The notes: generated from the sequence alone by a model not told the origin. Positions 465 to 51,652 are shown, counted from the first letter of the stretch. The stretch is 64,000 nt of DNA from Verrucomicrobiota bacterium (GCA_013820875.1 JACDHS010000008.1:277-64276), one strand, 5' to 3'. Numbers and translations: made by a program.

Positions 465-801
465 GGTTGGCCAACTTGCCGTCAAAACAGAACGAAAAAG
501 TAGGTAGGTTGGCCAACGAGGTGTCTAAAACGGAACGAAAAAGTAGGTAGGTTGGCCAACGAGGTGTCTAAAACGGAACGAAAAAGTAGGTAGGTTGGCC
601 AACGAGGTGTCCAAAACAGAACGAAAAAGTAGGTAGGTTGGCCAACGAGGTGTCCAAAACAGAACGAAAAAACAGGTAGGTTGGCCAACGAGGTGTCCAA
701 AACAGAACGAAAAAACAGGTAGGTTGGCCAACGAGGTGTCCAAAACAGAACGAAAAAGTAGGTAGGTTGGCCAACCAGGTGTCTAAAACAGAACGAAAAA
801 G
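465..801. repeat. 43-bp tandem repeat array (7 full units plus partial) with GTTGGCCAAC palindrome
   Basis: Unit AAAACAGAACGAAAAAGTAGGTAGGTTGGCCAACGAGGTGTC(C/T) starts at 484, 527, 570, 613, 656, 699, 742, 785; an extra GGTTGGCCAAC at ~465. Confidence 0.97.
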
Positions 802-925
802 TTGCAATTCGCAATTTGAAGCGGAATCGAGTTCGTCTCGACACGAGGCTCCGCTACAGAGAGATTTCCTGTGAGTGATCGGCTATAGACTGAATGCCGA
901 CCACATTCTGATCTTCAAAATTTTT

Positions 926-1333
926 ATGGATAAAATACCAGTAACGGAGACTGCGGTGATCATCCGCACAGACTTTTCAGACGACCGACAATGGAGCAAC
1001 CTAAAGAGAATCGCGATGGATCCACCAGACCCGTTCCACGGCAATTTCGAATTTATTGAAAATAGCGCCTGTCAGGAAAAGGAACTGGAGGAGCTTCTCC
1101 AAATGTTGCCGAAGGACTATCCTCACCCTGTCCTCTTCGTGGCGGATGAGGAAGCGATGGCCGAAAAGGGTTTTCCTTGTCTCGTCGTTGATCTTTTGGA
1201 AACCAAAGGTCAGACATTCAGGGCGATCGCGCGGCAACTGGCTTCCATCGAAAACAACCTGAGCATCGCCAATATGGGCTTCGAGGAATTCGCGGATGCG
1301 GTGGATGCAGAAGGAGTATTTCGCGGGTTTTAA
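926..1333 (+). CDS. DUF6924-like conserved hypothetical protein
   Basis: Motifs IIRTDFSDDRQW and FRAIARQLASIENNLSIANMGFEEFADAVDAEGVFRGF typical of this family; ATG at 926 preferred over the track start. Confidence 0.7.
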   Translation: MDKIPVTETAVIIRTDFSDDRQWSNLKRIAMDPPDPFHGNFEFIENSACQEKELEELLQMLPKDYPHPVLFVADEEAMAEKGFPCLVVDLLETKGQTFRAIARQLASIENNLSIANMGFEEFADAVDAEGVFRGF

Positions 1334-1413
1334 AAAGCAGCTAACGCAGAGACTCGAGGTCACGGCGCGGCGAATCCTGCGTTAAGATCAAACTGCCGTC
1401 TTAAAAACAGAAA

Positions 1414-1437
1414 CCCTGCGGTTAAAAAACCGCAGGG
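1414..1437. terminator. Hairpin between convergent genes, likely bidirectional terminator
   Basis: CCCTGCGGTT-AAAA-AACCGCAGGG stem-loop between the 3' ends at 1333 (+) and 1466 (-). Confidence 0.5.
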
Positions 1438-1465
1438 GGTGTGACCGAAAAAAACCACCTGTTAC

Positions 1466-1876
1466 TTACCAGCGCACATAACCCGAGTGCCTCGTAGAGT
1501 GACCATGGCTGGGGCGGTGATGACTGTAGCCCGGATTGGAATGGCCATAACCGTGACGCGGATAGCTGTGGCCATAACCGCCGTGATACCTGGGTTGCAC
1601 AACCACCGTGGGAGGACAAACCGGTGCGTAAACTGGCTGCTGATAGACCGGTGCGTAAACTGGCTGCGGATAAACAGGTTGATAGACCGGCCGATAAACG
1701 GGTCGGTACACCGGCGCAGGCGCAACATACACTGGGGTCGCACAAACTGGCGCCGCATACACTGGGGCGTAATGCCGGTGAGAGTTGCCGAAGGAGACAC
1801 TGAATGCCACGCCGGCTTTTGAAGTTGCAACTCCAACACTGAGAACTGCCAGAGCTACTAATATTGTTTTTTTCAT
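1466..1876 (-). CDS. Secreted low-complexity Pro/Val/Tyr-repeat (PVY) protein with His/Gly tail
   Basis: Signal peptide MKKTILVALAVLSVGVATSKA, repeated PVYxxPVY, C-terminal HGYGHS repeats. Confidence 0.75.
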   Translation of the reverse strand: MKKTILVALAVLSVGVATSKAGVAFSVSFGNSHRHYAPVYAAPVCATPVYVAPAPVYRPVYRPVYQPVYPQPVYAPVYQQPVYAPVCPPTVVVQPRYHGGYGHSYPRHGYGHSNPGYSHHRPSHGHSTRHSGYVRW

Positions 1877-1938
1877 ACTTCGTTTTTGGTTCGGTTATCC
1901 GTTCCTTCAAGAATAGACGAAGCGACACTTTGATTTCT

Positions 1939-3817: not shown

Positions 3818-5299
3818 ATGTTCCCCGTAATCCTCAGCATCGACCTGGGCACAACCGGGAATCGCGCGATTATTTTCGATCGTGAAACGAACGTCGTGGC
3901 GGCGAGTTACCGTGAGTTCAAACAAATCTTCCCTCAGCCAGGCTGGGTGGAACACGACGCCGCAGAGATTTGGGCCAGCACACGCCGGGTCATTGCCGAA
4001 GCTGTGCAGCAGGTCGATCCAAAACGTATTGTCGCGATTGGTTTAACCAACCAGCGCGAAACCGTTGTCGCATGGAACCCAAAAACCGGCGAGCCAATCC
4101 ACAACGCAATCGTCTGGCAGGACCGGCGAACGTCCGCCCGTTGCGCAGAACTGAAGCGCGCGGGCATTGAGAAGGAAATCCGCGACCGAACCGGTCTGCT
4201 CGCCGATCCCTATTTCTCCGCCACCAAGATTGAATGGCTTCTCCAGAATGTTCCCGGTGCGAAAGACGCCATCTTCGGCACGATTGATTCCTGGATTCTT
4301 TGGAACCTCAGCGGGGGCAAAGTGCATGCCACTGACGTGAGCAATGCTTCGCGCACGATGCTGTTCAACTTGGAAACCTGCGATTGGGATGATCGGTTGC
4401 TCGATTTGTTTGGGGTTTCTCGATCGAGTTTGCCGGAGGTTCACGCCAGTTCCGGGGAGATCGCCGCGTTGGATCCGGAGTTGTTCGGGTTTTCCGCGCC
4501 TATCTGTGGTGTCGTCGGCGACCAGCAAGGATCCATGTTTGCGCAGGGATGTTATGAGCCGGGGATCGTCAAGAACACCTATGGCACTGGATTGTTCATG
4601 ATGATGAATACCGGCGCAGCGCGACCGATTGAGGAAGGGCTGCTCACGACTGTCGCATGGAAAATCGGGGGCGCCGTCGAATACGCCATCGAAGGGAGCG
4701 TGTTCACCGGCGGCGCCGCCATTCAATGGTTGCGCGATCAGTTGGGGATTGTGAAATCCGCGTCTGAAACGGAAGCGCTCGCTGCCAGTCTTGCGAGCAA
4801 TGAAGACGTCTATTTTGTCCCGGCATTGACCGGCCTGGGAGCGCCTCACTGGGATCCGGAAGCGCGCGGCACAATCATAGGGATTACTCGAGCGACCCGC
4901 CGCGCGCATCTCGCTCGCGCAGTGCTGGAAGCCATCGCCTATCAAACGCGCGATTTGACCGACCTGATGTGTCGAGCCACCGGCGCGCGTCTCCGCAAGT
5001 TGCAGGTGGACGGTGGCGCGTGTGCCAATAATTTCCTGATGCAGTTCCAATCGGATGTGCTCGATGCCCCGGTGGAGCGTCCGAAGATTATTGAAACGAC
5101 TGCCCTGGGAGCCGCGGGGCTGGCTGGTTTGGCGGCCGGGCTCTGGCCAAACCGAGAAGAGTTCATGAGACATCGGCGGGTGGAACGAACGTTCGAGCCG
5201 CACATGGATTCAGTAGAGCGCGACCGACTTTTTGCGAGATGGCAGAATGCCGTGCAACGCTCCCGCCATTGGGCCAGCGATCCAGCGCCAGGGATGTAG
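3818..5299 (+). CDS. glpK: Glycerol kinase
   Basis: IDLGTTGNRAI, GLTNQRETVVAW, IVWQDRRT, TDVSNASRTML, GDQQ, KNTYGTG, DGGACANNFLMQFQSD motifs. Confidence 0.96.
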   Translation: MFPVILSIDLGTTGNRAIIFDRETNVVAASYREFKQIFPQPGWVEHDAAEIWASTRRVIAEAVQQVDPKRIVAIGLTNQRETVVAWNPKTGEPIHNAIVWQDRRTSARCAELKRAGIEKEIRDRTGLLADPYFSATKIEWLLQNVPGAKDAIFGTIDSWILWNLSGGKVHATDVSNASRTMLFNLETCDWDDRLLDLFGVSRSSLPEVHASSGEIAALDPELFGFSAPICGVVGDQQGSMFAQGCYEPGIVKNTYGTGLFMMMNTGAARPIEEGLLTTVAWKIGGAVEYAIEGSVFTGGAAIQWLRDQLGIVKSASETEALAASLASNEDVYFVPALTGLGAPHWDPEARGTIIGITRATRRAHLARAVLEAIAYQTRDLTDLMCRATGARLRKLQVDGGACANNFLMQFQSDVLDAPVERPKIIETTALGAAGLAGLAAGLWPNREEFMRHRRVERTFEPHMDSVERDRLFARWQNAVQRSRHWASDPAPGM

Positions 5300-5706: not shown

Positions 5707-5770
5707 GGGGGACAGTGTTCAGTATTCAGTTTTTTGACGTCTGAATACTGAACACTGAATACTGTCCCCC
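5707..5770. repeat. Intergenic imperfect inverted repeat (REP-like, CTGAATACTGAACACTG motif)
   Basis: GGGGACAGTGTTCAGTATTCAG...CTGAATACTGAACACTGAATACTGTCCCC; the same CTGAACACTGAATACT occurs at 3796-3811. Confidence 0.75.
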
Positions 5771-6665: not shown

Positions 6666-6688
6666 TTGCGGTTCCTCAGGGAGTGCAA

Positions 6689-6720
6689 ACCGCTAATCTG
6701 CGCTAACGAACGCTAATCCC
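6689..6720. repeat. ACCGCTAATC-type short-period REP-like motif
   Basis: ACCGCTAATCTGCGCTAACGAACGCTAATC; related copies at ~23696, ~23805-23835 (inverted) and ~51076. Confidence 0.65.
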
Positions 6721-8331: not shown

Positions 8332-8984
8332 GCGGAACATCAAATTGGAATCCGGAGCGTTTTCACCATGCAACAATGCAACAATTCACTCCAGATGTTT
8401 GAACTCCACGCGCAGGTCGTTTGCGTCGCAATGCAGGATGGCGACGACTCGCGGATCGTTGAAACGCTTTTTGCCGGCGGAACCGGGATTCAGGAAGAGG
8501 GTCTTGCCGATCATCTGGTTGAAGGGCTTGTGGGTATGGCCGAAAACAACGACGTCGGGTTTGGCAAGAAGGAGCCTGCGCTGGAACGTTTCTGAAGGAT
8601 TATGAATATCCACGATGTGATGGATCATGAATTTGCGCCCGGCGAGTTCGATGACTTCGGTTTCGCGTAACGGCAGGCCATCATCGGTGTTGCCATAGAC
8701 GGCAGTCACCGGCGCGATCTGCTCTAATTCAACGATGATATTGGATCGGCCGACATCGCCCGCATGAAGGATGTGATCCACACCGGCGAAAAGTTTTTCG
8801 ACCTGCGGATCAAACCAATTGTGCGTATCAGAAATGACGCCGATCTTCATGTAGCTGGACATGAATCCAAGTAAAGACGGAGAGAGACGTGAATTGCACG
8901 AATTTTCACGAATGGGGAAAGGAGGGTTACATGGATGAATGGTTGCATGGTGAAAACGCTCCGGATTCCAATTTGATGTTCCGC
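8332..8984. repeat. Perfect 43-bp inverted repeat pair (8332-8374 / 8942-8984) bracketing one gene
   Basis: GCGGAACATCAAATTGGAATCCGGAGCGTTTTCACCATGCAAC and its exact reverse complement; imperfect homology extends outward (GTTGGGAAG at ~8314 / ~9003). Confidence 0.9.
8386..8850 (-). CDS. Metallophosphoesterase (YfcE/MJ0936 family)
   Basis: MKIGVISDTHN, HAGDVG, GNTD, FGHTHKP, LNPGS calcineurin-like motifs; start reassigned to ATG 8850. Confidence 0.92.
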   Translation of the reverse strand: MKIGVISDTHNWFDPQVEKLFAGVDHILHAGDVGRSNIIVELEQIAPVTAVYGNTDDGLPLRETEVIELAGRKFMIHHIVDIHNPSETFQRRLLLAKPDVVVFGHTHKPFNQMIGKTLFLNPGSAGKKRFNDPRVVAILHCDANDLRVEFKHLE

Positions 8985-9175
8985 CTTGCAGGCGCTTCCC
9001 AACTGTGCCAGCCATTGAACTATGTAACTCCTCCTTTCTCCATTCGTGAGAATTCCTGTAATTCGTGTCTTAATTAACACCCCTTTTCCGATGCAAACTT
9101 TGCTTCCGCGAATTATGATGCATCTGCCTTGGTTTGAATATTGGCAGTGCGCGCAGTGTCCAAGGCTTGTCTTTT

Positions 9176-11470
9176 ATGTCGCCCCAATATTTTCGTGTCG
9201 CAAAGGTTTTCGCAGTCTTTGCCTTTGTTTTAGTTCACGGTTTCGTTGCTGCTGGCGCTTTTGGTGATCCTCGTGGTTTCCTGGTGAATCAACAGGTCTC
9301 CGAAACGGTTGTCTATCCGGGAGTCAAATACATCCGGGCCGATGGTTCTCACCTGGGGCTGCCCATGGTCACTCATGTTGTGACGGTTGATATGACCGAT
9401 CCCGGTGTGAAGCTCCAGATGCTACCGGGAGAACGCCTGGTCACAGCCTCTTCCGGCCAGTTCTTTCGCCGTTCACGGGTTTCCCATATGCAACAGGACA
9501 ACAACGCGCTCGTGGCGATCAACAGCGCCTTTTTCGACATCAGCGCCACCATGGCCCCGAGCGGGTTGCATGTGCGGGATGGCATGATGTTGCGTCAACC
9601 GGCGACCGGGAATCCGAGCTTTGCCGTGACTGAGGACGGCCTGGCTTTCATTAATAGTTTTGGGTGGAGCCGGAACGTCCGCTATGGGACAGGCACCGCT
9701 GCGTTGCAGGGTGTCAATAACAACATAATCGGCGACAACAACATAGCCTTGTATCAGTATCCATGGGACCGAAGTCCTGCGACCAATGCCGCATTCATCA
9801 ACGGGCGTGCGGTGACAGAAGTCGTGATCGGGAAAGTAGCTTTTACAAAATCGTCGGGCGGAACTCAGCGGCACCTGCTTCGAGGCAAGGTGTTGGAAGT
9901 TCGTAACAACAAAGGTTCTGTCGGGTTGAACGCCACCAATTATGTCCTGACTGCCACCGGGACATCTCGAAGTTTTTTGCAGCAGATGACCGTTGGTTCG
10001 ACGGTGGATGTGGATTGGCTACTGAGCAGTGTGCCGAGCGGCATCAATTGGAGTCGCATCAGCGAAGTGGTTTCCGGCAACAATCTTTTGATCGTCAATG
10101 GCGTTCTCCAGAACGGCAGCGGCAGTCATTGGGAATCGCGTCATCCGCGGAGTGTGGTCGGTATCAACGAGAGCCAAACCAAGGTGCTCTTTTTGTTGGT
10201 GGAAGGGCGTCAGAGTGGGCGGGCTGAAGGAATGAGCCTCGATAGTGTGCGCAATTATGTATCGCACATGGGTGTTTACAACTGTTTGGAACTCGATGGC
10301 GGTGGATCGTCTGCGATGGCTGGGCGTATCAATGGCAATAATGTGCTTCTCAGTACCCCGTCGGATGGTTCAGAGCGCTACGTCCCCTCGGGTCTCGGTG
10401 TGGTGGCTGTTCCCGAAATGGCCAATCCGTTTTTCCAAAACGTGCGTGTGAGCACTGGGCATGACATGGCGGCGATCAGTTGGGAAACGCCTGAGCCGGC
10501 AATCTCCTACTTGCTGTACGGCAAGGAGGGATATGACATCGAATCCATTCGGAACCAAGTGCCATCCAAAAGGCACACGATTTTTCTCTCCGGTCTGGAA
10601 TCTCATACGCTCTATTTCGCGCGAATGGCAGCGGAAACCGGTGCAGGAACACAAACGTCTCAGAGCCAGCAGTTCACCACCAGTTTCGAAGTGGTGGTGG
10701 ATGATGCCCAGGCCGCTTTCGACGGAACATGGAGCACTGGCGCATTTGAAGTTCCCTACGGCCCAAGCTACCGCTGGAGCAATGTGGACATCGCGAGCAG
10801 TCCAACGCGGACGGCGACGTTTCGCCCGAATCTTCCAGCCAGCGGTCACTACGATTTGTACGTGTGGTTTACGCCGGGAGGCAATCGCACGACCGAGGCG
10901 CGCTACGACATCAAAAACCAGGCAGGAACGCAGGTGTTGACGCAATCCCAGCGAACGGGTGGAAATAATTGGACACTGTTGGCCAGCAACATGGCCTTTG
11001 ATTCAGGAACAAACGGCTTCGCCAAAGTGCGCAATGACTCGACGGTGGGAACTGTCGTGATTGCGGACGCTTTCCGATGGGTGTTGAACAGCCCCGCGCC
11101 CATGCCACATGGAGAGGTGCCAACATGGTGGCGTGAACATTTCTTTGGGGTAAATGCTCCAGACGCTTCCACTGATGTGGATGAAGACGGTTATTCGATT
11201 TACGAGGAATACATTTGGGGAACGGTTCCCGATGACTCGACCTCTTCGCCGAGGACTATTTTCGAACAGACGCAAGGGGGTGGCTTCCAACTCACTTTCT
11301 CGCCAGTTCGCGCGGATCGAGTTTACCGAATCGAAGCCAGCACGGACCTGGATAGTTGGACAACATTCAATGTGCCTCTACAGGAAGTGAACGGACAGGG
11401 CATTGTTAATCTGCCGGTTGAATCCGGGTTGGGGCAACGGTATTATCGCCTCCGGGTCGCACTTCCGTAA
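9176..11470 (+). CDS. Secreted phosphodiester glycosidase (NAGPA-like) with Fn3-like and golvesin-like domains
   Basis: Signal peptide; VAINSAFFD, HPRSVVG, VEGRQ, LELDGGGSS motifs; later VVDDAQAAFDGTWSTG...YDLYVWFTPGGNR golvesin-like module. Confidence 0.85.
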   Translation: MSPQYFRVAKVFAVFAFVLVHGFVAAGAFGDPRGFLVNQQVSETVVYPGVKYIRADGSHLGLPMVTHVVTVDMTDPGVKLQMLPGERLVTASSGQFFRRSRVSHMQQDNNALVAINSAFFDISATMAPSGLHVRDGMMLRQPATGNPSFAVTEDGLAFINSFGWSRNVRYGTGTAALQGVNNNIIGDNNIALYQYPWDRSPATNAAFINGRAVTEVVIGKVAFTKSSGGTQRHLLRGKVLEVRNNKGSVGLNATNYVLTATGTSRSFLQQMTVGSTVDVDWLLSSVPSGINWSRISEVVSGNNLLIVNGVLQNGSGSHWESRHPRSVVGINESQTKVLFLLVEGRQSGRAEGMSLDSVRNYVSHMGVYNCLELDGGGSSAMAGRINGNNVLLSTPSDGSERYVPSGLGVVAVPEMANPFFQNVRVSTGHDMAAISWETPEPAISYLLYGKEGYDIESIRNQVPSKRHTIFLSGLESHTLYFARMAAETGAGTQTSQSQQFTTSFEVVVDDAQAAFDGTWSTGAFEVPYGPSYRWSNVDIASSPTRTATFRPNLPASGHYDLYVWFTPGGNRTTEARYDIKNQAGTQVLTQSQRTGGNNWTLLASNMAFDSGTNGFAKVRNDSTVGTVVIADAFRWVLNSPAPMPHGEVPTWWREHFFGVNAPDASTDVDEDGYSIYEEYIWGTVPDDSTSSPRTIFEQTQGGGFQLTFSPVRADRVYRIEASTDLDSWTTFNVPLQEVNGQGIVNLPVESGLGQRYYRLRVALP

Positions 11471-11589
11471 GAGCCTGTCTGAAAATGGGTGGAACGGGCT
11501 CCAAGGCAATAAAGGCCCAGACCTCGACAAGAACAGGCGAGGCAAAATATACCTTTTCTATAGGGTCAACCGTATTGAGTGAGTCGCTT

Positions 11590-13038
11590 ATGAGCCAATT
11601 CCGACCGAGTGTCAGTTATAGTTTCACCGTGCGCCTTTGCATCGAAAACAGGCCCGGCCGACTGGCCGAGGTGTTGAAAGTAATTGCTGCAAAACGAGGT
11701 GATCCCGGCGCAGTGGACGTCGTCCAGGCCGACCGCAATCTCAAAGTGCGCGATCTCACCGTGAGTGCCCGTGACGAGAAACACGCGCAGGCCATCGTCC
11801 AGGCCATCAAGAAAGTTAAAGGGGTCACCATTCGGAACGTCTCTGACCGCGTCTTTCTTCTGCACCTCGGAGGGAAAATCCGGATTCAAAATAAAATCCC
11901 GGTCAACACTCGCGACGCGCTTTCAATGGCCTACACACCTGGCGTCGCGCGCGTTTGCACCGCCATCGCCGAGGACAAACGCAAAGCACGCACCCTGACC
12001 ATCAAGCAGAACTCCGTCGCCGTCGTCAGTGATGGCTCCGCTGTTCTTGGCCTGGGCAACATCGGTCCCGAAGCCGCCATGCCGGTCATGGAAGGCAAAG
12101 CGATGCTGTTTAAGGAATTCGCCGATATCGACGCTTATCCCATCTGTCTGAGCACGCAGAACACCGAAGAAATTATCTCCGCAGTCAAATGGATGTCACC
12201 CGGTTTCGGCGCAGTCAACCTCGAGGACATCAGTGCGCCACGCTGTTTTGAAATCGAACAGCGTCTCAAAGACGAACTCGATATTCCTGTTTTTCACGAC
12301 GACCAACACGGCACAGCCGTAGTCGTGCTCGCAGCCACACTCAATGCGTTGAAACTCGTGGGCAAGAAACCGAGCCAGATTCGAGTGCTGATCATTGGCG
12401 CAGGTGCGGCAGGAGTTGCCATCGCCCGAATCCTCAAATCCGCGTGCGTGCGCGACATCCTTTGCTGCGACCGCGAGGGAATCATCAGCCGTAAACGTTT
12501 GCCGGATTTGAATACGAGTAAAGCCTGGCTCGCCCGGAACACAAATGGACGCAATTGCAGCGGCTCCATCGAGGACGCCGCGTCTGGTGCGCACATTGTA
12601 ATCGGTGTTAGCGGCCCGGGACTTTTTTCATTGCAGGCACTCAAGAAAATGGCCAAAGACCCGATTGTTTTTGCTCTCTCGAATCCCACTCCCGAGATCA
12701 TGCCCGAAGAGGCTGCGTCCCACGCGCGAATCATCGCCACTGGACGCAGCGATTATCCGAACCAGATCAACAACGTGCTGGCGTTTCCCGGCATTTTCCG
12801 AGGAGCGCTGGACTCAAGGGCTGTTGACATCAACGAAGAAATGAAACTTGCCGCGGCTTACGCGATTGCGGGTTGCATTGCCGAGGATGAACTCAGCGAG
12901 GAATACATCATCCCGAGCGTGTTCAACAAACAAGTGGTTCGCCGCGTGGCCCGTGCTGTTGAAGCCGCCGCCCATAAAAGTGGCGCCGTTAAGAATTCGC
13001 GGCGCGGTTCTGGCGGGAAACATTCCGTCTGCCCGTAA
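11590..13038 (+). CDS. NAD(P)-dependent malic enzyme with N-terminal ACT domain
   Basis: ACT-like N-terminus; [52 protein letters not shown] motifs. Confidence 0.93.
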
Positions 13039-13076
13039 CTGCAACTGGAGCGGTTTGTCCCGGTGACGGGAGACTT

Positions 13077-13117
13077 AATCATGTGGCAGAACATCGCGTC
13101 GCGCAGTTTCGGTTCAA
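13077..13117 (-). repeat. Displaced copy of the DUF1015 3' end (att-like)
   Basis: AATCATGTGGCAGAACATCGCGTCGCGCAGTTTCGGTTCAA encodes EPKLRDAMFCHMI on the minus strand, identical in protein to the end of 24014-25228. Confidence 0.9.
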
Positions 13118-13126
13118 TAAAGAGGT

Positions 13127-13243
13127 CGGGGAGACCGGCGGGAGCCGATCTTCAAGGATGACGCGGATCATCGTTGTTTTCTCAAGACGCTGGGAGAAGC
13201 GTGCCTGCAAACGGATTGACAGGTGCATGCCTTCTGCCTGATG
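13127..13243 (+). pseudogene. Relic of a REP-associated tyrosine transposase (RAYT, Y1/HUH family)
   Basis: Reads RGDRREPIFKDDADHRCFLKTLGEACLQTD*QVHAFCLM, matching the RG..R..IF.DD.D...FL..L.....W..HAYCLM.NH.H N-terminus; TGA at the conserved Trp position; breaks off before the HUH motif. Confidence 0.8.
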
Positions 13244-13310
13244 CACAAGGGGGTTTTAAAAACTCAAAACTGCCCATTGCAAACATTGAACCAGACAATA
13301 CACCGACTCC

Positions 13311-13418
13311 ATGACCGCCATCGCCGTCGAATTGGATCAAAAACTTCAAAGCCTGGATCCGGAAACGGCTGCGTCCGTCGAGCGGTTGGTGCGCGACGCA
13401 TTGCAACTGGCGGAAAAG
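13311..13418 (+). pseudogene. 5' half of a small antitoxin-like gene interrupted by an insertion
   Basis: MTAIAVELDQKLQSLDPETAASVERLVRDALQLAEK; its last 40 bp (13379-13418) recur exactly at 17020-17059. Confidence 0.55.
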
Positions 13419-13530
13419 GTTACACGCCAGGCAACCGTTGAAAGTTTGCTCGCTCCTTACGTTTCACTTCCATTCGATGACGCCGCCGCGCCCCAAATCA
13501 CTCATTCGATCGCACAACACACCTGGACGG

Positions 13531-17272: not shown

Positions 17273-17292
17273 TCTCAATTCCTAAAATTCTG

Positions 17293-18011: not shown

Positions 18012-18032
18012 CACGAAAGAAAAGAACAGAAT

Positions 18033-45298: not shown

Positions 45299-45805
45299 TT
45301 AAGGATCGGATGAACAGCTGACACGTCGATGTTGATTACTTCTAACCGAACGGTTTCGAGCAGTTCGGGCAAAGGCTTTGAACATTTTATGAACAGTGTT
45401 TGCCTCGTCCTTTAGATCGTGCTCCCAGATACGAACGACTGTCCAACCCGCTTTACGAAGCGCTCGGCTCACGGCGCGATCTCGCTCCATATTTCTTTCC
45501 AGTTTTGCCGACCAAAAAGCTGATCGTGTCAATGGGATATGTCCATGCCGTCGACAGCCGTGCCAAAAGCAACCATCCAAGAATAACGCTAGACGCTCAC
45601 GTTTCCAGACGAAGTCTGGGCGTAGGTGCCCATGTTGAACCGGTGGATTCGGTCCACGCAATGTCAATCGGATATGCCGACGCCATCCTCGCATCTTATT
45701 GGCGCGAAGGATCGATAACATGCGTTGCTCGGTACTCAGGTTGCCTTGCGAACGAATGGAAGCCATCAATTGTGAGCGCTTCGAGGTCGTGAAGATGTCT
45801 GCCAT
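45299..45805 (-). CDS. vsr: Very-short-patch repair endonuclease
   Basis: MADIF...RSQLMASIRS...TE, RPDFV, FLDGCFWHGC, WSAKLERNMERD, WEHD. Confidence 0.93.
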   Translation of the reverse strand: MADIFTTSKRSQLMASIRSQGNLSTEQRMLSILRANKMRGWRRHIRLTLRGPNPPVQHGHLRPDFVWKRERLALFLDGCFWHGCRRHGHIPLTRSAFWSAKLERNMERDRAVSRALRKAGWTVVRIWEHDLKDEANTVHKMFKAFARTARNRSVRSNQHRRVSCSSDP

Positions 45806-45823
45806 TGTGTTCTGGATTGTAAA

Positions 45824-46963
45824 CTAACAAACCAAAGCGAATTCTATAAAATCGGCATCCCTTTGCTTCCATGCCTCTTCGTGTTTCTCAAAGAATGCGC
45901 GTTGCTCTGCAGAACATTTTAAGCCTCGATTCAACAGTTTGAAAATTTTATTAATGTAATAACGAAATGCAGGCTCAATTGTAGCTTCATCATAACCGTG
46001 GGTATAGATGCCGAGTTTCGGACAGGCAAACAGCCAGGCGTTATCTCCACGATGTTTTATGAAATCTCCCCCTTGCTGTAATGGGCCAAAATCTTTCAAA
46101 AGAAATTGATCCAGTTCAGTGGTGTACTGTTTTGGGGTGTTGCCGGCTTTCTCCACAACGCGAATTTCTTTTTCATCGATCATTTCTGCAGTGAGGAGAT
46201 CGCCTTCGTCGAGTATCGGTCCCTGAAATAGTAAACCGACCGACGCTGCCTCGTTAAGGCGATTGAATACAAATAAAAGCCGAGGCACGTCATCTAGATT
46301 GTCTGTTTCAAGTAACTTTTCGAAAAAGTCTTTTTGAACGTCGCTAAGAGTAGATTGAAATGCTGGCATCGAGACGGCGGTGAAGTGGGTATTCTCGATT
46401 TCTTCAGAGCTGGATTTACGTGATCGAGGCACCAGCAAGGCGAACGTTGTAAAATTGTTTGGGTTCGCAGTTTTCTTTTCCAGAATTGAATACATTCCAT
46501 CATCTTGAATTTGGTCGGGGGCGATCAAGGCAGCATCTTGCATCGGATCTTCGATGAAGGTTTTCAAAGCTGCGACGGTTGATTCGCACGGTTTTAGGGC
46601 AGCTTTGAATTGCTTAAGAAAATGCGAGCACTGTTGTTTTGCTACTTTTACACAACAAATCCGTTTGATCTTACTAGGATCCGACCTGCGCGTTATGAAC
46701 CAGAATTGGATGCATCCCGGCCAAATGTCAACCAATCGACATCTTCGTTCCAGAAGGTGTTCCCAAACATTAGTATCCCGGATCTCACCTTTATGAGAAT
46801 TCCACACGGGGGTAGCCAAAGGTTTGCAATCTTCGACTAGTAGGTCGCCAATTCTTGCAAATGCTGTATATGAATCAATATCCGCGTCTGGGAAGCGTTT
46901 GATTACTGCAAGACCAGTCTGGGATGTCCGTCCTTCATATGACAGGATAGAGGGGATGTTCAT
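45824..46963 (-). CDS. Uncharacterised AT-rich protein in the methyltransferase operon
   Basis: 379-aa ORF whose ATG overlaps the upstream TGA (ATGA at 46960-46963); no family recognised. Confidence 0.8.
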   Translation of the reverse strand: MNIPSILSYEGRTSQTGLAVIKRFPDADIDSYTAFARIGDLLVEDCKPLATPVWNSHKGEIRDTNVWEHLLERRCRLVDIWPGCIQFWFITRRSDPSKIKRICCVKVAKQQCSHFLKQFKAALKPCESTVAALKTFIEDPMQDAALIAPDQIQDDGMYSILEKKTANPNNFTTFALLVPRSRKSSSEEIENTHFTAVSMPAFQSTLSDVQKDFFEKLLETDNLDDVPRLLFVFNRLNEAASVGLLFQGPILDEGDLLTAEMIDEKEIRVVEKAGNTPKQYTTELDQFLLKDFGPLQQGGDFIKHRGDNAWLFACPKLGIYTHGYDEATIEPAFRYYINKIFKLLNRGLKCSAEQRAFFEKHEEAWKQRDADFIEFALVC

Positions 46964-48102
46964 TTCTTCGCCCCTTTTTTTATGCATTTTGAACATACCT
47001 CAGCGATCTGCTCTAGCAGTTCTGAAACTTTTGATGTTATCTCTTCGGCTGGAAGCCCCTTGATCCAAGCTAAAAATAGTCGTGCTTTGTCCTCTGCTGC
47101 GCGCAACGCCCTTTTCTCATTCATCATTGCTACCACCTGCTCCAACTTTGTTCCTTTCGATTCCTTGAGTAAGCTCCACGCTTCTGAATCCCGTCTTGCG
47201 CGAATCATTGGTTCAACCTGTTTCAGGTTTTGAAACCCATCTTGTTGCGCCATCAAGTGAAAAAACATTCTTTTGGTATCAGGCAACTCGGTCGCGTTTA
47301 ACTGAGACCGCCCTTTCATTGCTTTGTTTCGGAATTCCCAGAAGTAGACGAATTGTTCTTCTACGACTTGGCGGTGTTTATAGTGTGCATCCTCCGTTTT
47401 CGATGATGAAACAAACTCGTTGGCGATTTGGAGTGTCTCAAGCCATTGGTTAGCTATCGATTCGGACATCGCAAATACTTCAGCGATTTCAGCGAGTGCC
47501 TTTTCATGTGTTAGCTTTGACTTAAGGCAAGCAGTGTAATAGTCCTCGACAACCTTGGCCTTGGCCCCAAACGGCCAAGGTATTTTAAGGTCTGGAACAA
47601 AATTTGCCTCTGCGAGAATTTTGAGCCGTTGTTTCTCATTCAAGTCCGTTGTTTTAATCACCCAAACTGGTATGCGATCTAATACTTGGGGCTGTTGCTG
47701 CTTTTTTCGTTCGAATCGCCGTCTCAGCAAATGGCTGGCAAAAAAGCGACGGTTTCCATCCAGTAGCGTTGCATCATCTAATATGATCATTGGAACCCGC
47801 ACTCCATTCCTTTCTATTGAGCGGGAAAGGCTGTCGAGTTCGTGAATTGGGAGGCTGGTGACAAAATCCACCACCCTTTCAAAAGGTATCTCGGCAAGCT
47901 TCTTTTTTTCTATGCGCTCGAGGCGATCAAACGTGAATTTGGTTCGATCGTTTTCTGGCCAGTAGGTGATTTTCGACAAAGGCAGTTCGGTAGGATATAC
48001 AGTTATCCATTCATCGTGGAACAGCTCTGTTTTCGGCTTCAGCCCCTTTGTAGATACGATAGCAGAATCGATCTTTTTCGTTAGGGTTTTGAGTTTTGAC
48101 AT
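46960..48102 (-). CDS. ParB N-terminal-domain protein with HTH-like segment
   Basis: LSRSIERNGVRVPMII...LLDGNRR; later LAEIAEVFAMSESIANQWL helix-turn-helix pattern. Confidence 0.78.
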   Translation of the reverse strand: MSKLKTLTKKIDSAIVSTKGLKPKTELFHDEWITVYPTELPLSKITYWPENDRTKFTFDRLERIEKKKLAEIPFERVVDFVTSLPIHELDSLSRSIERNGVRVPMIILDDATLLDGNRRFFASHLLRRRFERKKQQQPQVLDRIPVWVIKTTDLNEKQRLKILAEANFVPDLKIPWPFGAKAKVVEDYYTACLKSKLTHEKALAEIAEVFAMSESIANQWLETLQIANEFVSSSKTEDAHYKHRQVVEEQFVYFWEFRNKAMKGRSQLNATELPDTKRMFFHLMAQQDGFQNLKQVEPMIRARRDSEAWSLLKESKGTKLEQVVAMMNEKRALRAAEDKARLFLAWIKGLPAEEITSKVSELLEQIAEVCSKCIKKGAKK

Positions 48103-48150
48103 GTATTTAAATCCAGTTTTCCTAGCCTAACTTCCCGCGCATCAAAAAAA

Positions 48151-49479
48151 TCAGCACACAGGACGTATTTTCAACGCGGCAAATCCCTTGCGTAGGCCAC
48201 CAGCTTTTCCCAACCAAGCACAGTCCGCTTCCCTGCCAGTATTCTCGCGCATGAAATAGGGATTCAAAGTCGTGCGTGGCCGATTTCTTAATTTTTCCAA
48301 AATCTCACGATTTGCACACAGAACTTCACCGCAATAGCGAATTTTATTCCTGCTGCTTATCATTCTTCGAATTGCCGCCCCGATTGCACTACCTAGCCCT
48401 ACTGGCGTGGCGTTGCCGATTTGTCGATATTGCTCGCCAATTGCGCCTGCAAAACGCCATTCATCGGGAAAACCTTGGATCCGAGCGCACTCTTGGACGC
48501 TTAACGGTCTGTCTTCAGCAGGGTGACACAGCATAGTTGCGCGACTTCTAGGGTTGTTGATGATTGTCGGTGCAGGCTCATTCCATGCTAATCGTCGTAA
48601 GAAGCCACATCGCCCTCCCCAAGAATGATAAGCACCACCGATTGCTTGGGCTTGAAGCTCAGTCGGCAGGGCTCGCCAATTTGCTCCAGCAGGAATGCGT
48701 CGCAAATATTCGAGATTTACTTCATTGAAAGGCTGATAAACAGGTTCATTTTCATTCAAATCGGCAACTGCAGTCTGAAAGTCCACCCATGGGTGCAGGC
48801 CATCGCTGCCATTCTCAGCATGAGTGGCCACTGGCCAGATGCTTGAACCGTCGCGTGCCCCTATAATAACGAAACGTTCTCGTTTTTGCGGAACTCCGAA
48901 ATCGGCCGCGTTTAATGTGCCCCAAGTAGCGCAGTAGCCTGTTTTTTCACAGAAAGCTTTTAAATCCTCAAGGATACGCCGGAAAGCAGAACCATATTCC
49001 TCGGACGGCTTTAGAGGCGGAAAACCTGGGCCACGTTCTGCTAAAGGTCGATGCTTCAGTGCTGCAGATAAGAGCCCCTTCACGTTTTCAATAACGAAAT
49101 AGCGTGGTTGAAGCAATGCGACTGCATTGAACATAATGTCGAACCCTGAGGCTCTTTCGTCCTTCAAAGAAAGTCTCTTGCCAGCAGTGCTAAACGGTTG
49201 GCACGGTGGAGCACCGGCCAAAATACCTATGCTTCCGACCTTAAGGCGTGCCTGTTTTATGATTTTTGCGCACGCATATTCAACGTTGTTTTCCGTCAGT
49301 GGTTCGGAGAAAACAACCAAGGGGCGTCCTTTCTTTGCGTGCTGGTTCAATTCAATTGTTTCTAGGGCGGCCTTATTGCAATCGGCAACGGCGCGAAGAG
49401 AAAATCCGGCAGCTTCCAAACCGAGATCTAACCCTAGCGCACCAGAAAAAAAAGATACAATTGTTTGCGGCTTTGACAT
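48151..49479 (-). CDS. DNA (cytosine-5)-methyltransferase
   Basis: FFSGALGLDLG, PPCQPFS, ENVKGL, QKRER, RIQGFP, QIGNATP motifs. Confidence 0.96.
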   Translation of the reverse strand: MSKPQTIVSFFSGALGLDLGLEAAGFSLRAVADCNKAALETIELNQHAKKGRPLVVFSEPLTENNVEYACAKIIKQARLKVGSIGILAGAPPCQPFSTAGKRLSLKDERASGFDIMFNAVALLQPRYFVIENVKGLLSAALKHRPLAERGPGFPPLKPSEEYGSAFRRILEDLKAFCEKTGYCATWGTLNAADFGVPQKRERFVIIGARDGSSIWPVATHAENGSDGLHPWVDFQTAVADLNENEPVYQPFNEVNLEYLRRIPAGANWRALPTELQAQAIGGAYHSWGGRCGFLRRLAWNEPAPTIINNPRSRATMLCHPAEDRPLSVQECARIQGFPDEWRFAGAIGEQYRQIGNATPVGLGSAIGAAIRRMISSRNKIRYCGEVLCANREILEKLRNRPRTTLNPYFMRENTGREADCAWLGKAGGLRKGFAALKIRPVC

Positions 49480-49900
49480 TTATTTGTTGGTTCTAACAGA
49501 ATCGGTTCCCATCATAGTTTTAAAGTAAATTGTGGATCAACGTTGAGGAAAAGCACGTTTCCTAGTCATTTGTCTTCCAGTTTGTTGGGTTTCTTGTTGC
49601 TGGGCAAAGCGTCATTAGAATTTACGCTTTCTCGTTCAGATGGTCACGCTGACCATACATAGCAGGTTTTACGTATCAAAGATATTTCCATTGATAAACT
49701 CTGGAACGGAGTGTTTAGCGCCTTTGGCATTTTATAAGTCCCAAAATCAAGCCTACAGGGCCGATAAATGCCAGGAGCGGGGCAGGGATGAGATTGTTGA
49801 AAATGTACGGGTTGTTTCCCGAGCTCTACATGGGACTGCCGGGTTGTCCGACGGAATTGAACTTTGAGATTGCCATTCTTTTTAGGCGGACTGGTTGCCG

Positions 49901-50143
49901 CTACTTCTTTCGCTTGAAAAGGAAGCCTTGAGTTTTTTCGAAAGAAAAAAAGCCAACAGCTTCCCAGCCATCATCGCCCAACCTGCTAAGCCGGTCAGGA
50001 TCAAGATGGGATGAGCCGCTCCGGTAGTAGGTCGTATACTCCCATTGCGTGCGTTTCTCTTGGACAGCAGCGATTGTGAGGATCAGAAGGGCACTCAAGA
50101 CTGCGCCGGTTACCAGGCTTCGAATGTTTACGTTATGTTTCAT
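49901..50143 (-). CDS. Small exported DUF4177-like protein
   Basis: Signal/TM followed by QWEY...LGDDGWEAV...FLFKRKK. Confidence 0.75.
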   Translation of the reverse strand: MKHNVNIRSLVTGAVLSALLILTIAAVQEKRTQWEYTTYYRSGSSHLDPDRLSRLGDDGWEAVGFFSFEKTQGFLFKRKK

Positions 50144-50496
50144 CTATGTGGTCTTCCCGTGGTGAATTTCTGTGAAGCATTGACAATGTCGGATGCTTCT
50201 CTGGTCTGACGTGGGGGGATCGGGATTATTCGAGGCTGTGGTCGACTCACCCGGAAACGCACGCAGCGGAGAGTTAATCCTCGTCTGGTTTTTATGCGAC
50301 GAGGGACGGCATGTTCGGTTGGAATGGGAGAAAGATGGTTCGGGAAAGCTGCTTGGAACCGGTCGGAAAGCACGTTTGGCGCGTGATTTTCCGATCGGGT
50401 TGTCGGAATGGATTGTTACAGGGAAATAAACAGGGTGTCGCTTCGTCATACTTTCCGTTCCGCGGACACTTTTCTCCCCTGCGTTATTGGCTCCAT

Positions 50497-50888
50497 ATTT
50501 CTCGGGGAAAAAGGTCTGATTCACGACCGGATGGCCATTTTTTTCGGCGGAAAAGTTCAGATCAATAGGTGTTCATGGCTTTTTCCGCCGAAAAAAATCA
50601 AGTGCATAAGGTGATAACGACTTTTTTCGGCCGAAAAAACGAAATCAACAGGTGTTCATGACTTTATCCGGCGGAAAAAACCATTGTCATAAGGTGTTCA
50701 TGACCTTTTTCGCCGGAAAAAACCGATGTCATAAGGTGATAACGACTTTTTTCGCCGAAAAAAACCAAATCAATAGGTGTTCATGACTTTTTCCCGCGAA
50801 AAAAACCGATGTCATAAGGTGTTCATGACTTATTTCGCCGAAAAAACCCGAATCAACAGGTGTAGGTGACTTTTTTTGCGGGAAAAAA
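50497..50888. repeat. 41/42-bp-period array of 8 units with T/A-tract palindromes
   Basis: AGGTG at 50567, 50609, 50650, 50692, 50734, 50775, 50817, 50858; unit approximates AGGTGTTCATGACTTTTTTCGCCGAAAAAAACCGATGTCATA. Confidence 0.93.
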
Positions 50889-51058
50889 TGGCAGTCTGGT
50901 GCTGTTTCCGGTTGTAACGGCCTTTAAGGCAGAGGTTTACGAACCGTCTGGAGGTTTTTCGCTGTTTTCGGTGGAATAGAAAGGCGGCTTCTGATCTGGT
51001 CTTTGCTTTGTTCCGGAGGAGTCCATTCTTCCGGGGTATTTCGCCAATGAAGATTGAT

Positions 51059-51149
51059 CCTAAAACCGCAGTTGAACCGCTAATCTTCGCTGATAGTCGC
51101 TAATGGAGAAGTGAATGTGCGAAACAATGACTTCAACCAACAGGTGGTT
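51059..51149 (+). repeat. ~90-bp dispersed element, copy 2
   Basis: CCTAAAACCGCAGTTGAACCGCTAATCTTCGCTGATAGTCGCTAATGGAGAAGTG...GCGAAACAATGACTTCAACCAACAGGTGGTT; see 23761. Confidence 0.85.
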
Positions 51150-51312
51150 CAAAGATCCAAACGAAGGCAAAAGTCAGGGAGGAGAGTTAGAGTTGTAGAG
51201 TCGCAGCCCGCACGCCGGACCTTCAATAATCCGACAACGTCAACAATTCCAACTGAACTGGTTGACTTGGGGAAACGATGAAAATTGTTCCGGTGGACTG
51301 TTCGGGGAGGTC

Positions 51313-51652
51313 GAAAAACGCGTATTTCTCGTGATTTCCCTTCGGGCGGACAGGTGAATTACGTAATTGACGTGTTTTCATGAAGGGAAATTCCGTGAAT
51401 TACGTAATTCACGACTCCGCCCGACGGGCGAGGTGGTGAATTCTGTAATTCACGTGTCCGCCCGACGGGCGGAGAGGCCAAATACGTAATTCACGTGCTC
51501 GCACGACGGGCGGAGACGTCAATTACGTAATTCTCGTCCTCGCCCGACGGGAGAAGTGGTGAAATACGTATTTGTCGTGTTTTCCTGAAGGGAAACTCCG
51601 TGAATTACGTAATTCACGACTCCGCCCGATGGGAAATCACGAGAAAAACGTG
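51313..51652. repeat. 41-bp-period array built on the palindrome GTGAATTACGTAATTCAC
   Basis: TACGTA core or variant at 51319, 51360, 51401, 51442, 51483, 51524, 51565, 51606; linkers are a second hairpin (CGCCCGACGGGCG or TTTCCTGAAGGGAAA). Confidence 0.95.

Follow-up and report, generated by a model that had tools for sequence, protein, structure and literature searches.

The window, the whole stretch of DNA that we analyzed (64 kb of an uncultured Verrucomicrobia genome), contains four tandem repeat arrays at 465–802, 23195–23530, 50497–50888 and 51312–51652, whose neighboring genes encode DUF6924, an ArsR-like wHTH, DUF1015 and an M24 peptidase. These arrays are real and non-coding. TRF reported array 1 at 465–802 (period 43 bp, 7.9 copies, 94% matches), array 2 at 23242–23518 (42 bp), array 3 at 50561–50888 (41/42 bp, plus a higher-order period of 125 bp) and array 4 at 51354–51636 (41 bp), and unit listings aligned in register gave eight units per array in all four. 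The positions and periods that a previous sequence-only reading had given (43, 42, 41/42 and 41 bp) were borne out by these analyses, and its cores were confirmed in register: GTTGGCCAAC in array 1, GTTAAC in array 2, TCATGA/TTTTTCGCCGAAAAA in array 3 and GTGAATTACGTAATTCAC in array 4. The cores far exceed chance (0/100 shuffles matched), and each is restricted to its own array within the 64-kb window. By autocorrelation over lags of 5–120, arrays 1–4 were the only periodic loci in the window, at lags of 41–43 or multiples thereof. All six frames of arrays 2–4 are interrupted by stops, and no Rfam family matched the arrays even at permissive thresholds. The units of arrays 2–4 are distinguishable from each other, and these arrays are 100% identical in another assembly, array 4 also in a third. 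No similarity to the array sequences was detected among 72,556 plasmid and 50,697 phage records.

Array 1 (no strand assigned) comprises eight 43-bp units, the first spacing being 42 bp; this copy number comes from the window's assembly alone, and two other assemblies break within the array. It lies between tRNA-Asn (62–136, minus strand) and the DUF6924 gene (875–1333, plus strand). Pairwise identity among the inner units is 94–100%, and the unit consists of GTAGGTAGG followed by the palindrome GTTGGCCAAC, plus two A-tracts. An inverted arm to the left of the array (441–459, no strand assigned) matches the end of the last unit (782–800) perfectly in reverse complement; blastn-short aligned 441–459 with 800–782 at 19/19 positions, and the inverted repeats I3 and I5 agree with this. 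This arm and the first GTTGGCCAAC core together form a founder palindrome of ~60 bp. A minus-strand ORF overlapping the array (482–844) was rejected as an artefact of the repeat.

Array 2 (plus strand) is composed of eight units of exactly 42 bp with ~70% identity, in which a conserved module, TTTcCGGAAanAAAAGTTAACGA, is joined to a variable remainder and the run AAGTTAAC is invariant (p<0.0005). The array starts 171 bp past the stop codon of the small wHTH gene (22644–23024, plus strand), has on its 3′ side a terminator-like hairpin carrying a T-run (~23545–23590), and is located at the right edge of a ~15-kb block missing from the closest relative. Array 3 (minus strand) has eight clear and ~2 decayed units of 41/42 bp, which form a higher-order repeat of 125 bp (42+41+42), and its unit combines AGGTGTTCATGAC with the hairpin TTTTTTCGCCGAAAAAA. 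When reverse-complemented, array 3 shows homology to array 2 (24/42 ungapped, p=0.002; gapped z=8.8), and the two arrays form one family in opposite orientations. The description of the arrays as unrelated in sequence fails for this pair. A half-unit of R5, an array of the relative with one dyad per 21.0 bp, resembles the array 2/3 hairpin (p=0.007), and arrays 2, 3 and R5 have a common orientation with respect to the upstream gene.

Array 4 (no strand assigned) contains eight 41-bp units and a five-unit higher-order repeat. The unit carries a 20-bp palindrome, CGTGAATTACGTAATTCACG, and a 5–6-bp hairpin, CGCCCGACGGGCG, the latter appearing as TTTCC-TGA-AGGGAAA in variant units. The dyad axes recur every 20.5 bp, so that each unit reads the same in reverse complement. 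In the closest relative, R1 is a homologue of array 4 (z=12.5); the flanks are unrelated, the sites non-orthologous, and the two arrays are placed in opposite orientations with respect to their upstream genes. They are 56–63% identical in species that differ by 16% in the protein of one conserved enzyme; this divergence looks slower than neutral decay, which would count against a selfish-repeat reading. A covariance model of the array 4/R1 unit found nothing beyond these two arrays in the 1.33 Mb searched.

Among the dyad cells scored, 76% were paired as against 37–52% in slid controls, and 41 had changed on both sides as against 4–16 in slid controls, a number reached in none of 500 shuffles. 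The palindrome passes through the series AAAAACGTTTTT > AAATACGTATTT > AATTACGTAATT. Dyad mismatches of the G.T and A.C types are balanced in the array 4 family (25 vs 21), and the array 4/R1 unit scores equally on either strand. The units change by symmetric, palindrome-preserving substitutions without a strand bias pointing to RNA. Together with the lack of an Rfam match, this strand neutrality speaks against the structured small-RNA precursor that had been proposed.

A period of 41–43 bp was found in 9/9 arrays of the window and 70.7 kb of the closest relative (135 kb), which contained no other long-period non-coding repeats. In contrast, 1/47 arrays in 3.3 Mb of other genomes had this period (Fisher p = 1.3e-9). 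The unit length is common, to within 1 bp, to at least six sequence families without detectable mutual similarity; to this extent the arrays are unrelated in sequence, and the earlier view that geometry rather than sequence is conserved was upheld for unit length. A length of 41–43 bp corresponds to approximately four DNA helix turns (4 × 10.5). The exact period is kept within families, at 41 bp in arrays 4 and R1, 41–42 bp in arrays 2, 3 and R5, and 43 bp in R3 and its second locus. The periods of related arrays from other Limisphaerales are 21–22 bp (two turns). All nine arrays carry at least one dyad per unit with arms of 5–13 bp and are, in all cases, strictly head-to-tail direct repeats. 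The class was seen in two genomes among the 81 Limisphaerales sampled and is restricted to one lineage.

The genome of the relative stems from a different study, and its arrays have 9, 7.3, 4.8, 3, 2.5 and ~2 copies. The figure of ~8 copies thus holds for the four arrays of the window but not for the class, in which copy number ranges from 2 to 10, a ceiling that may be partly technical because assemblies built from short reads tend to be interrupted there. The association with accessory islands and a tRNA likewise applies loosely in the window but not in the relative, where the arrays sit among housekeeping genes. Arrays occur at a density of ~1 per 15 kb and belong to many families; six of the nine start 20–354 bp past a stop codon, and the other three are located in divergent promoter regions.

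In young arrays, neighboring units are identical and similarity declines with distance, old arrays contain higher-order repeats of 3, 5 and 4–5 units, and the most diverged units are always those at the edges. Arrays grow through in-register block duplication, and the families disperse within and between genomes. Low-copy arrays of 2–3 units, apparently young, are also present. R3 has a second locus (R3b) of ~2 units at a distance of 32 kb; it lies in a promoter region, and the corresponding region of the window has no such units. When the arrays were masked, R3b was the only extra occurrence of units in the 135 kb covered, which represents parts of the genomes. Array position was not conserved in the one orthologous comparison possible. 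The array flanks share no common motif, and the boundaries fall at no fixed phase of the unit. The sequence-only reading had overlooked both the partial homology of the arrays and their dispersal in the manner of mobile repeats. Old arrays are conserved unevenly, and some non-palindromic runs, AAAAGTTAACGA and AGGTG among them, are invariant; this is compatible with recognition of specific sequences and thus with a possible function. The conservation is position-specific (VMR p<=0.002), but because duplicated units share their ancestry, the unevenness statistic is inflated.

One cognate binder per array had also been suggested, and both candidates are unsupported. The wHTH beside array 2 has an ArsR-like match only below threshold, and the 380-aa 'ParB-HTH' protein, encoded inside a Dcm-Vsr restriction-modification cluster, has no Pfam match and hits only TIGR00180 (40 residues, E=0.06). 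With arrays this dense (~1 per 15 kb) and of many families, it is implausible that each has a binder of its own. No ParA/ParB, Rep or recombinase gene was found anywhere in the window, which leaves a role in partition, replication or recombination unsupported; searches for cas genes, and for ToxN-like or other processing genes near the arrays, were also negative. At 13121–13246 (plus strand), the window contains the remnant of a gene for a RAYT-like Y1 (HUH) transposase, which has an in-frame TGA and is truncated ahead of the HUH motif. The full-length proteins among its 2192 relatives match PF01797 and resemble NF047646 (REP-associated tyrosine transposase) more than IS200. This relic is a dead fragment that is single-copy in the 1.28 Mb of Limisphaerales DNA searched and is not flanked by array units, and it provides a circumstantial candidate for the enzyme family mobilizing hairpin repeats. 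No intact candidate enzyme gene was found in the 135 kb examined. A MITE-like element is present in the same intergenic regions as the arrays.

Among known repeats, the arrays are similar to the REP clusters and BIME-2 of Enterobacteria and Pseudomonas, which are short extragenic palindromes mostly just 3′ of genes, fall into several unrelated families per genome and are patchy over lineages. REPs are mostly downstream of genes, and their large clusters often reiterate the unit and flanking DNA in tandem (PMC3733652), as in our arrays; the six arrays that start after a stop codon support a REP-like placement. REPs are characterized by an imperfect palindrome of ~20–40 bp capable of forming a stem-loop, to which the dyads in every unit of the nine arrays correspond. 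As for REP-like tags, a GTAG motif (GTAGGTAGG) precedes the palindrome of array 1 on its 5′ side, and CGTG or CGTC occurs at the palindrome ends of arrays 4 and R1, where it is base-paired whereas the REP tag is unpaired; arrays 2, 3 and R2–R5 lack the GTAG/CGTC tag. The head-to-head or tail-to-tail arrangement predominates in REPs and head-to-tail is rare (PMC3733652), unlike the strictly head-to-tail arrays. Dispersed singletons and inverted doublets are absent from the 135 kb, where units occur almost only in arrays. The arrays therefore lack two defining features of REPs, singleton dispersal and inverted pairing, and a lock of the period at 41–43 bp across families has not been described for REP clusters. 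The relic in the window recalls the RAYT (TnpA-REP) transposases, but the DNA examined yielded no intact cognate RAYT with units at its flanks.

In the sopC centromere of plasmid F, a type Ia partition site, a 43-bp direct repeat occurs 12 times, and every copy contains a 16-bp inverted repeat to which SopB binds (PMC3177203). The arrays share with it the tandem arrangement, the pitch, a similar copy number and total length, and a repeat centered on an inverted repeat. The geometry matches, but the centromere-like nature once proposed for the arrays is not supported: sopC adjoins sopAB on a plasmid and is the binding site of SopB, a member of the ParB family, whereas the arrays have neither a par operon nor a plasmid or phage relative; they are chromosomal, lie in a housekeeping context and, at ~1 per 15 kb, have at least six different cores. 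Minisatellites or VNTRs such as the MIRUs of Mycobacterium tuberculosis are likewise non-coding, intergenic and tens of bp in unit length, and show slippage or unequal exchange, higher-order blocks and decayed edge units. Strain-to-strain differences in copy number also characterize VNTRs; the other assemblies compared here either agree with the window or break within the arrays. Unit lengths vary among MIRU-type loci (roughly 40–100 bp), which are not known to be palindrome-based, whereas the period of the arrays is fixed across unrelated families with a dyad in every unit. Iterons (R6K, P1, F, pPS10) are also phased direct repeats at integral helical turns, a pitch comparable to that of the 21–22-bp arrays of other Limisphaerales and, within R5, of the 21-bp half-units, but the arrays are not accompanied by a rep gene, an AT-rich unwinding element or DnaA boxes, and their palindromic units are twice as long as the asymmetric iterons (17–22 bp). 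A CRISPR array was rejected because whole units repeat, including the 'linkers', and the variable parts recur as higher-order repeats. A toxI-like antitoxin (~36-nt repeats upstream of a ToxN-family gene) was also rejected, as the neighbors differ and there is neither an RNA strand signal nor an Rfam match.

The reading that we tentatively prefer is that the arrays are selfish, non-coding palindromic minisatellites of one lineage, similar to REP clusters or BIMEs. The 41–43-bp unit would carry one or two hairpin-capable dyads, and unit families would spread to new intergenic sites, becoming common to genomes at non-orthologous positions. Arrays would expand and shrink via in-register slipped-strand or unequal exchange in blocks of 1–5 units and decay inward from the edges, and symmetric double substitutions may maintain the palindromes at the DNA level. 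The units might be mobilized by a hairpin-specific enzyme, for which a RAYT-like Y1 transposase is the leading candidate. Most likely, the arrays neither serve a locus-specific function in the cell nor have a dedicated binder encoded by a neighboring gene. The selfish-repeat model alone leaves the common length, within 1 bp of 42 in six families, unexplained. A constraint may hold the unit at 41–43 bp (four turns, or in some families two ~21-bp half-units), for example by keeping successive dyads on one helix face for cooperative binding of the mobilizing enzyme or an abundant host protein. The four-turn unit length is apparently undescribed; no account of such period-locked unrelated families was found in the literature searched, in agreement with the earlier suggestion of an undescribed class.

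An unlikely alternative is that the arrays are functional, with palindromes serving as phased docking sites for a dimeric DNA-binding protein whose dimers would occupy one face of a scaffold of ~100–400 bp, be it a sopC-like centromere, an iteron-like element, a regulatory sponge or an organizer of the nucleoid or supercoiling. The geometry is indeed that of sopC of plasmid F (PMC3177203). The spacing equals 4 × 10.5 bp, or two turns in other Limisphaerales, the cores of old arrays are invariant (VMR p<=0.002; longest invariant run in array 2, p<0.0005), and dyad symmetry is maintained in DNA without RNA strand bias. However, no ParA/ParB, Rep or other partner gene lies beside any array, and at least six unrelated cores in 135 kb would need many binders or one that is blind to sequence. 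Non-conserved positions in the sole orthologous comparison, copy numbers of 2 to 10, the absence of plasmid or phage relatives and the inflated unevenness statistic also weigh against docking sites, and 41 and 43 bp deviate from 4 × 10.5 in opposite directions, which on geometric grounds would give different 3D paths. It is quite improbable that the common length is instead set by a clade-specific ruler enzyme, a hairpin-specific nuclease, transposase or integrase that would cut or copy units of fixed length, for example by rolling-circle copying of a minimal two-hairpin single-stranded circle or by staggered cuts ~42 bp apart and fill-in, and would turn any local or captured sequence into arrays of equal period. 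Consistent with such an enzyme are the agreement of six unrelated families within 1 bp, the two ~21-bp hairpin modules in several families (dyads every 20.5 bp in array 4 and 21.0 bp in R5), the confinement of the class to two of the 81 Limisphaerales sampled, the apparently young arrays of 2–3 units and the RAYT-like Y1 relic. Yet no intact candidate gene exists in the 135 kb examined, the boundaries and flanks show neither a fixed unit phase nor a common motif, the exact period within a family is also predicted by simple inheritance, and growth resembles ordinary slippage or unequal exchange.

We consider it very doubtful that the arrays act as RNA, that is, as 3′ untranslated regions or small-RNA precursors that would stabilize the upstream mRNA, terminate transcription or be processed into units as in the type III toxin-antitoxin toxI. 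REPs are thought to work partly in this way (PMC3733652), 6/9 arrays begin 20–354 bp past a stop codon, array 2 is bounded by a gene on one side and by the terminator-like hairpin and its T-run on the other, at least one hairpin is possible per unit, and arrays 2, 3 and R5 are oriented alike with respect to the upstream gene. Nevertheless, Rfam yielded no match, the mismatches of the array 4/R1 family are balanced, its unit is strand-neutral and its two arrays differ in orientation with respect to their upstream genes; moreover, GTTAAC and GTTGGCCAAC are too short for stable RNA hairpins, three arrays are in divergent promoter regions, and a ToxN-like or processing gene is absent nearby. A coincidence of periods or an assembly artefact has next to no probability. 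Near-identical repeats are indeed assembled unreliably from short reads, and array 1 is interrupted in two other assemblies. However, the units of arrays 2–4 are distinguishable and the arrays identical across independent assemblies, the same class is present in a second genome from a different study, and the period was shared by 9/9 arrays as against 1/47 elsewhere (p = 1.3e-9).

Tandem Repeats Finder detected the palindrome-bearing arrays of the window as array 1 at 465-802 (period 43 bp, 7.9 copies, 94% matches), array 2 at 23242-23518 (42 bp, 6.6 copies, 70% matches), array 3 at 50561-50888 (41/42 bp, 7.9 copies, 73% matches) and array 4 at 51354-51636 (41 bp, 6.9 copies, 71% matches), with a higher-order period of 125 bp in array 3 (87% matches). 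When the decayed edge units were added in an in-register listing, each array comprised eight units. A sliding autocorrelation at lags of 5-120 over the whole 64 kb returned arrays 1-4 as the only periodic loci, all at 41-43 bp or multiples thereof, and the array cores, which occur far above chance, are absent elsewhere in the window. The in-register listing also confirmed the cores named in the sequence-only reading, and the four arrays at a 41-43 bp pitch are real. Its further claim that about eight copies are common to the arrays holds for the window but not for the class, which ranges from 2 to 10 units. An NCBI metagenome contig carries arrays 2-4 with 100% identity, and a contig of another project does the same for array 4. 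Array 1 is interrupted by contig breaks in two other assemblies, and the window's assembly is thus the single source for its copy number.

Stop codons are present in 6/6 frames of arrays 2-4, while the nearly open minus strand of array 1 is due solely to the absence of stop triplets from its unit there. The ORF at 482-844 on this strand is a frame-cycling low-complexity artefact without a family match, and a coding repeat was therefore rejected for all four arrays. No Rfam family matched the arrays at gathering or permissive thresholds, a known RNA family was accordingly rejected, and searches of viral, plasmid and phage sequences gave no matches to them. Array 1 is flanked by tRNA-Asn (minus strand) and by a DUF6924 gene (plus strand). 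Array 2 begins 171 bp past a small winged-helix gene, with a terminator-like hairpin next, and converges on a DUF1015 gene. For arrays 3 and 4, the neighbours are an M24 peptidase gene on one side and a Dcm-Vsr cluster on the other.

Relatives were sampled by protein anchoring and by a contig walk along the closest relative. Among 80 loci of other Limisphaerales anchored on DUF1015 (1.16 Mb), a 41-bp array was found in the closest relative only (MAG GCA_046597605.1, whose DUF1015 protein is 84% identical to that of the window), and two more distant genomes carry 21-22 bp arrays. The walk along 70.7 kb of the closest relative revealed five arrays and no other long-period repeat: R1 (41 bp, 9 copies), R2 (43 bp, 3 copies), R3 (43 bp, 7.3 copies), R4 (43 bp, 4.8 copies) and R5 (42 bp, 2.5 copies). 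No close verrucomicrobial orthologue of the M24 peptidase or of an FGGY kinase was found in the genome collection searched, so the orthologous-site tests failed for arrays 1, 3 and 4, and the loci from these tests were reused as background. The pooled background of 3.3 Mb contained 47 tandem arrays (period ≥15 bp, ≥2.5 copies), a single one of which, a coding acidic repeat, falls within 41-43 bp. The sequence-only reading had named the genome-wide lack of an excess at 41-43 bp, of a ~8-copy mode and of an association with islands or DNA-binding genes as the outcome that would make the shared pitch a coincidence; in our sample, 9/9 arrays of the two genomes have this period vs 1/47 in the background (Fisher p = 1.3e-9). 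Thus, the period lock is real and lineage-restricted. Short-read contigs repeatedly end within arrays, and the apparent ceiling of ~8-10 units may therefore be partly technical. A search of genome contigs for the two-unit hairpin pattern CGCCCNNNGGGC...CGCCCNNNGGGC gave only chance matches in GC-rich genomes, and a metagenome scan yielded a single near-identical contig, chimeric or circularly permuted.

The 21-22 bp arrays consist of 9-12 copies of a hairpin unit of the TTCCC-loop-GGGAA type and were found in other Limisphaerales genomes (L023:16440-16690, L023:3985-4258 and L064:3616-3829). The L064 array is homologous to the first L023 array (z=6.3) at a non-orthologous position. These arrays appear to represent the two-turn equivalent of the four-turn arrays.

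To compare the arrays with each other, we used a rotation-free alignment on both strands against shuffles. Relatedness was detected between array 4 and R1 (z=12.5), between array 2 and array 3 in reverse complement (z=8.8), and between the first half-unit of R5 and the hairpin of arrays 2 and 3 (p=0.007). The earlier description of the arrays as unrelated in sequence therefore fails for arrays 2 and 3, but at least six families remain: 4/R1 (41 bp), 2/3/R5 (41-42 bp), R3 with its second locus (43 bp), and array 1, R2 and R4 on their own (43 bp each). The second locus of R3 comprises ~2 units in a promoter region 32 kb off, and its counterpart in the window does not have it. Arrays 4 and R1 also have variant units in common, at non-orthologous positions. 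Homologous flanks or defined element ends were sought and rejected, as the flanks of these two arrays are unrelated and array boundaries fall at different unit phases. The period is almost exactly inherited within a family and agrees within 1 bp across families. Detectable ancestry does not explain the period agreement between families.

We aligned 16 units of arrays 4 and R1 without gaps and scored their two-dyad structure. On this structure, 76% of cells are paired vs 37-52% with slid partners, and 41 cells are changed on both sides vs 4-16 in the slid controls, a value reached by 0/500 shuffles. The main palindrome forms a series, AAAAACGTTTTT to AAATACGTATTT to AATTACGTAATT, in which every step is a symmetric double change; AAAAACGTTTTT occurs in R1 variant units, with close variants in the edge units of array 4, AAATACGTATTT is one array 4 unit, and AATTACGTAATT is the array 4 core. 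In R1, a CG centre of this palindrome was replaced by TA. G.T mismatches balance A.C mismatches (25 vs 21), and both strands of the unit give equal scores, offset by 20-21 bp. These results indicate that the symmetry belongs to the DNA and not to an RNA read from one strand. It could reflect selection on a hairpin, a cruciform or the site of a dimeric binder; hairpin-templated correction of quasi-palindromes, a mutational process already known, could account for it equally well. Conservation varies along the units of old arrays, where AAGTTAAC and AGGTG are among the invariant runs; the statistic for this unevenness is inflated by the common ancestry of duplicated units. The unit-identity matrices display neighbour duplication in young arrays, higher-order blocks of 3, 5 and 4-5 units in old arrays, and the most diverged units at the edges, a pattern characteristic of in-register slippage or unequal exchange.

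The best fit, and the likeliest of the readings considered, is a REP-cluster/BIME-like class of selfish palindromic minisatellites, named after repetitive extragenic palindromes (REPs). The arrays are extragenic, mostly shortly after stop codons, belong to several families per genome that disperse within and between genomes, are reiterated in tandem and share their neighbourhood with a MITE-like element; REPs are reported with extragenic placement, several families, dispersal, tandem reiteration and MITE co-residence (PMC3733652). In contrast to REPs, two defining features fail: no dispersed singletons of the array units were found within 135 kb (the window plus 70.7 kb of the closest relative), and the arrays are strictly head-to-tail. 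The geometry also matches sopC, the centromere of plasmid F, which consists of 12 x 43 bp (PMC3177203), but the partner genes and replicon type do not. The cognate binders proposed in the sequence-only reading were not supported by database searches: the winged-helix protein beside array 2 has a sub-threshold ArsR/SmtB-like match, and the supposed ParB-HTH protein has no Pfam match and one 40-residue match at E=0.06. No transposase, recombinase, partition or replication-initiator gene was found in the window, except for a dead fragment at 13121-13246 (plus strand). This fragment is a pseudogene of a Y1/HUH transposase resembling the REP-associated tyrosine transposases (RAYTs), with an in-frame TGA and an end before the HUH motif. 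Pfam, NCBIfam, PHROGs and PDB gave no direct placement, and it was placed through full-length members of the 2192 relatives of its 50-residue RAYT-like sequence. These belong to PF01797, match the RAYT model at 1e-12 to 1e-14 (below its cut-off) and IS200 at ~1e-3, are closest to NF047646, and carry the HUH and catalytic tyrosine motifs. No second sequence of this kind occurs in 1.28 Mb of sampled Limisphaerales DNA, and the relic has no array units at its flanks; it lends a hairpin-transposase link circumstantial backing. A small antitoxin-like ORF starts at ~13313 downstream of it.

Several other identities and common features were rejected. Outside the arrays, the core hexamers show no avoidance (observed/expected 0.7-1.25), which does not fit a restriction-site decoy or methylation target. 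A-tract curvature is not a common feature, as arrays 4, R2, R3 and R4 contain no A-tracts, and two dyads half a period apart occur in arrays 4, R1 and R5 only. A CRISPR array, a type III toxin-antitoxin system and an iteron origin were rejected as well.

The four-turn unit may arise from a constraint holding dyads on one helical face, from a minimal unit of two hairpins (~2 x 21 bp) as in arrays 4, R1 and R5, or from an enzyme with a ruler. A far-reaching reading, which we regard as unlikely, is that a small Limisphaerales clade measures DNA length, with arrays of near-arbitrary sequence created at or filtered to a four-turn unit of two ~21-bp hairpin half-units; ~1 array per 15 kb would then amount to several hundred arrays per genome. 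A hairpin-specific Y1/HUH enzyme handling minimal two-hairpin single-stranded units could serve as the ruler, or else an abundant dimeric protein binding cooperatively to successive dyads along one helix face; with the latter, the arrays would form a structural system of the whole genome and not junk. If the lock were genome-wide, it would parallel, in bacteria, the length-constrained satellites of eukaryotes, in which length tracks protein-DNA structure and not sequence, and would point either to an undescribed, ruler-based way of making tandem repeats or to a protein reading helical phase at hundreds of loci. The more ordinary reading, a new REP-like family in Verrucomicrobia, would still extend the known forms of hairpin repeats to strictly head-to-tail, period-locked arrays. 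In the papers searched, REPs, sopC and an overall excess of tandem repeats between prokaryotic genes are described, but no period-locked multi-family class. Besides the period lock and its lineage restriction, the analysis established homologies between arrays, a series of symmetric substitutions, the absence of an RNA strand bias and the RAYT-like relic. In practice, the arrays cause breaks in the short-read assemblies of a soil and freshwater lineage that is abundant and uncultured, give spurious ORFs such as 482-844, and could be used as strain markers.

The MITE-like element is ~155 bp long, with 29-bp terminal inverted repeats composed of three CGCTAAT(C) motifs at 10-bp spacing. A full copy is located at 23695-23849, 165 bp to the right of array 2, an inverted partial copy (88 bp, 89% identical) at 51062-51149 between arrays 3 and 4, and a fragment at 6688-6718 past a Ku gene. 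Logan short-read contigs end exactly at two of these copies (6718 and 23810). In a metagenomic contig (MWWI01004766.1), which is circularly permuted or chimeric, window position 51115 is joined to 52624 and the contig ends overlap by ~127 bp; misassembly at the MITE-like repeat probably accounts for this structure.

The homologue of the window gene at 8386-9015 is the immediate neighbour of DUF1015 in the closest relative, so that the stretch from ~9.0 to 24.0 kb of the window, which has array 2 at its edge, is non-syntenic. This ~15-kb block (9016-24013) splits the DUF1015 and metallophosphatase genes, neighbours that are apparently co-transcribed in the relative, and contains a malic enzyme, a NAGPA/Golvesin protein, an Ig-repeat protein, toxin-antitoxin cassettes and orphan genes; no integrase was found in it. 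The 255-bp tandem repeat at 14144-14702 (2.2 copies, 87% matches) lies within the gene of a 708-aa Ig-domain protein and was excluded from the array class as an ordinary coding domain repeat. The M24 peptidase (51836-53038) and FGGY kinase (3818-5299) have their best matches, at 57-58% identity, in Armatimonadota, Acidobacteriota, Gemmatimonadota and Actinomycetota (Solirubrobacterales), and both may have been acquired horizontally. The minus-strand cluster at 45299-49479 encodes, in order, a Dcm C5-methyltransferase, a 380-aa protein without a family, a 390-aa protein with a weak prephenate-dehydratase-like (PDT) match, and Vsr, and looks like a restriction-modification or defence cluster without a recognisable endonuclease. 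A hairpin with 21-bp arms (AAACCACGGATGGACACAGAT) and an 18-nt loop is located at 17214-17273, where the toxin-antitoxin cassette region starts, and a perfect 17-bp inverted repeat at 5713-5757 lies upstream of the Ku gene.
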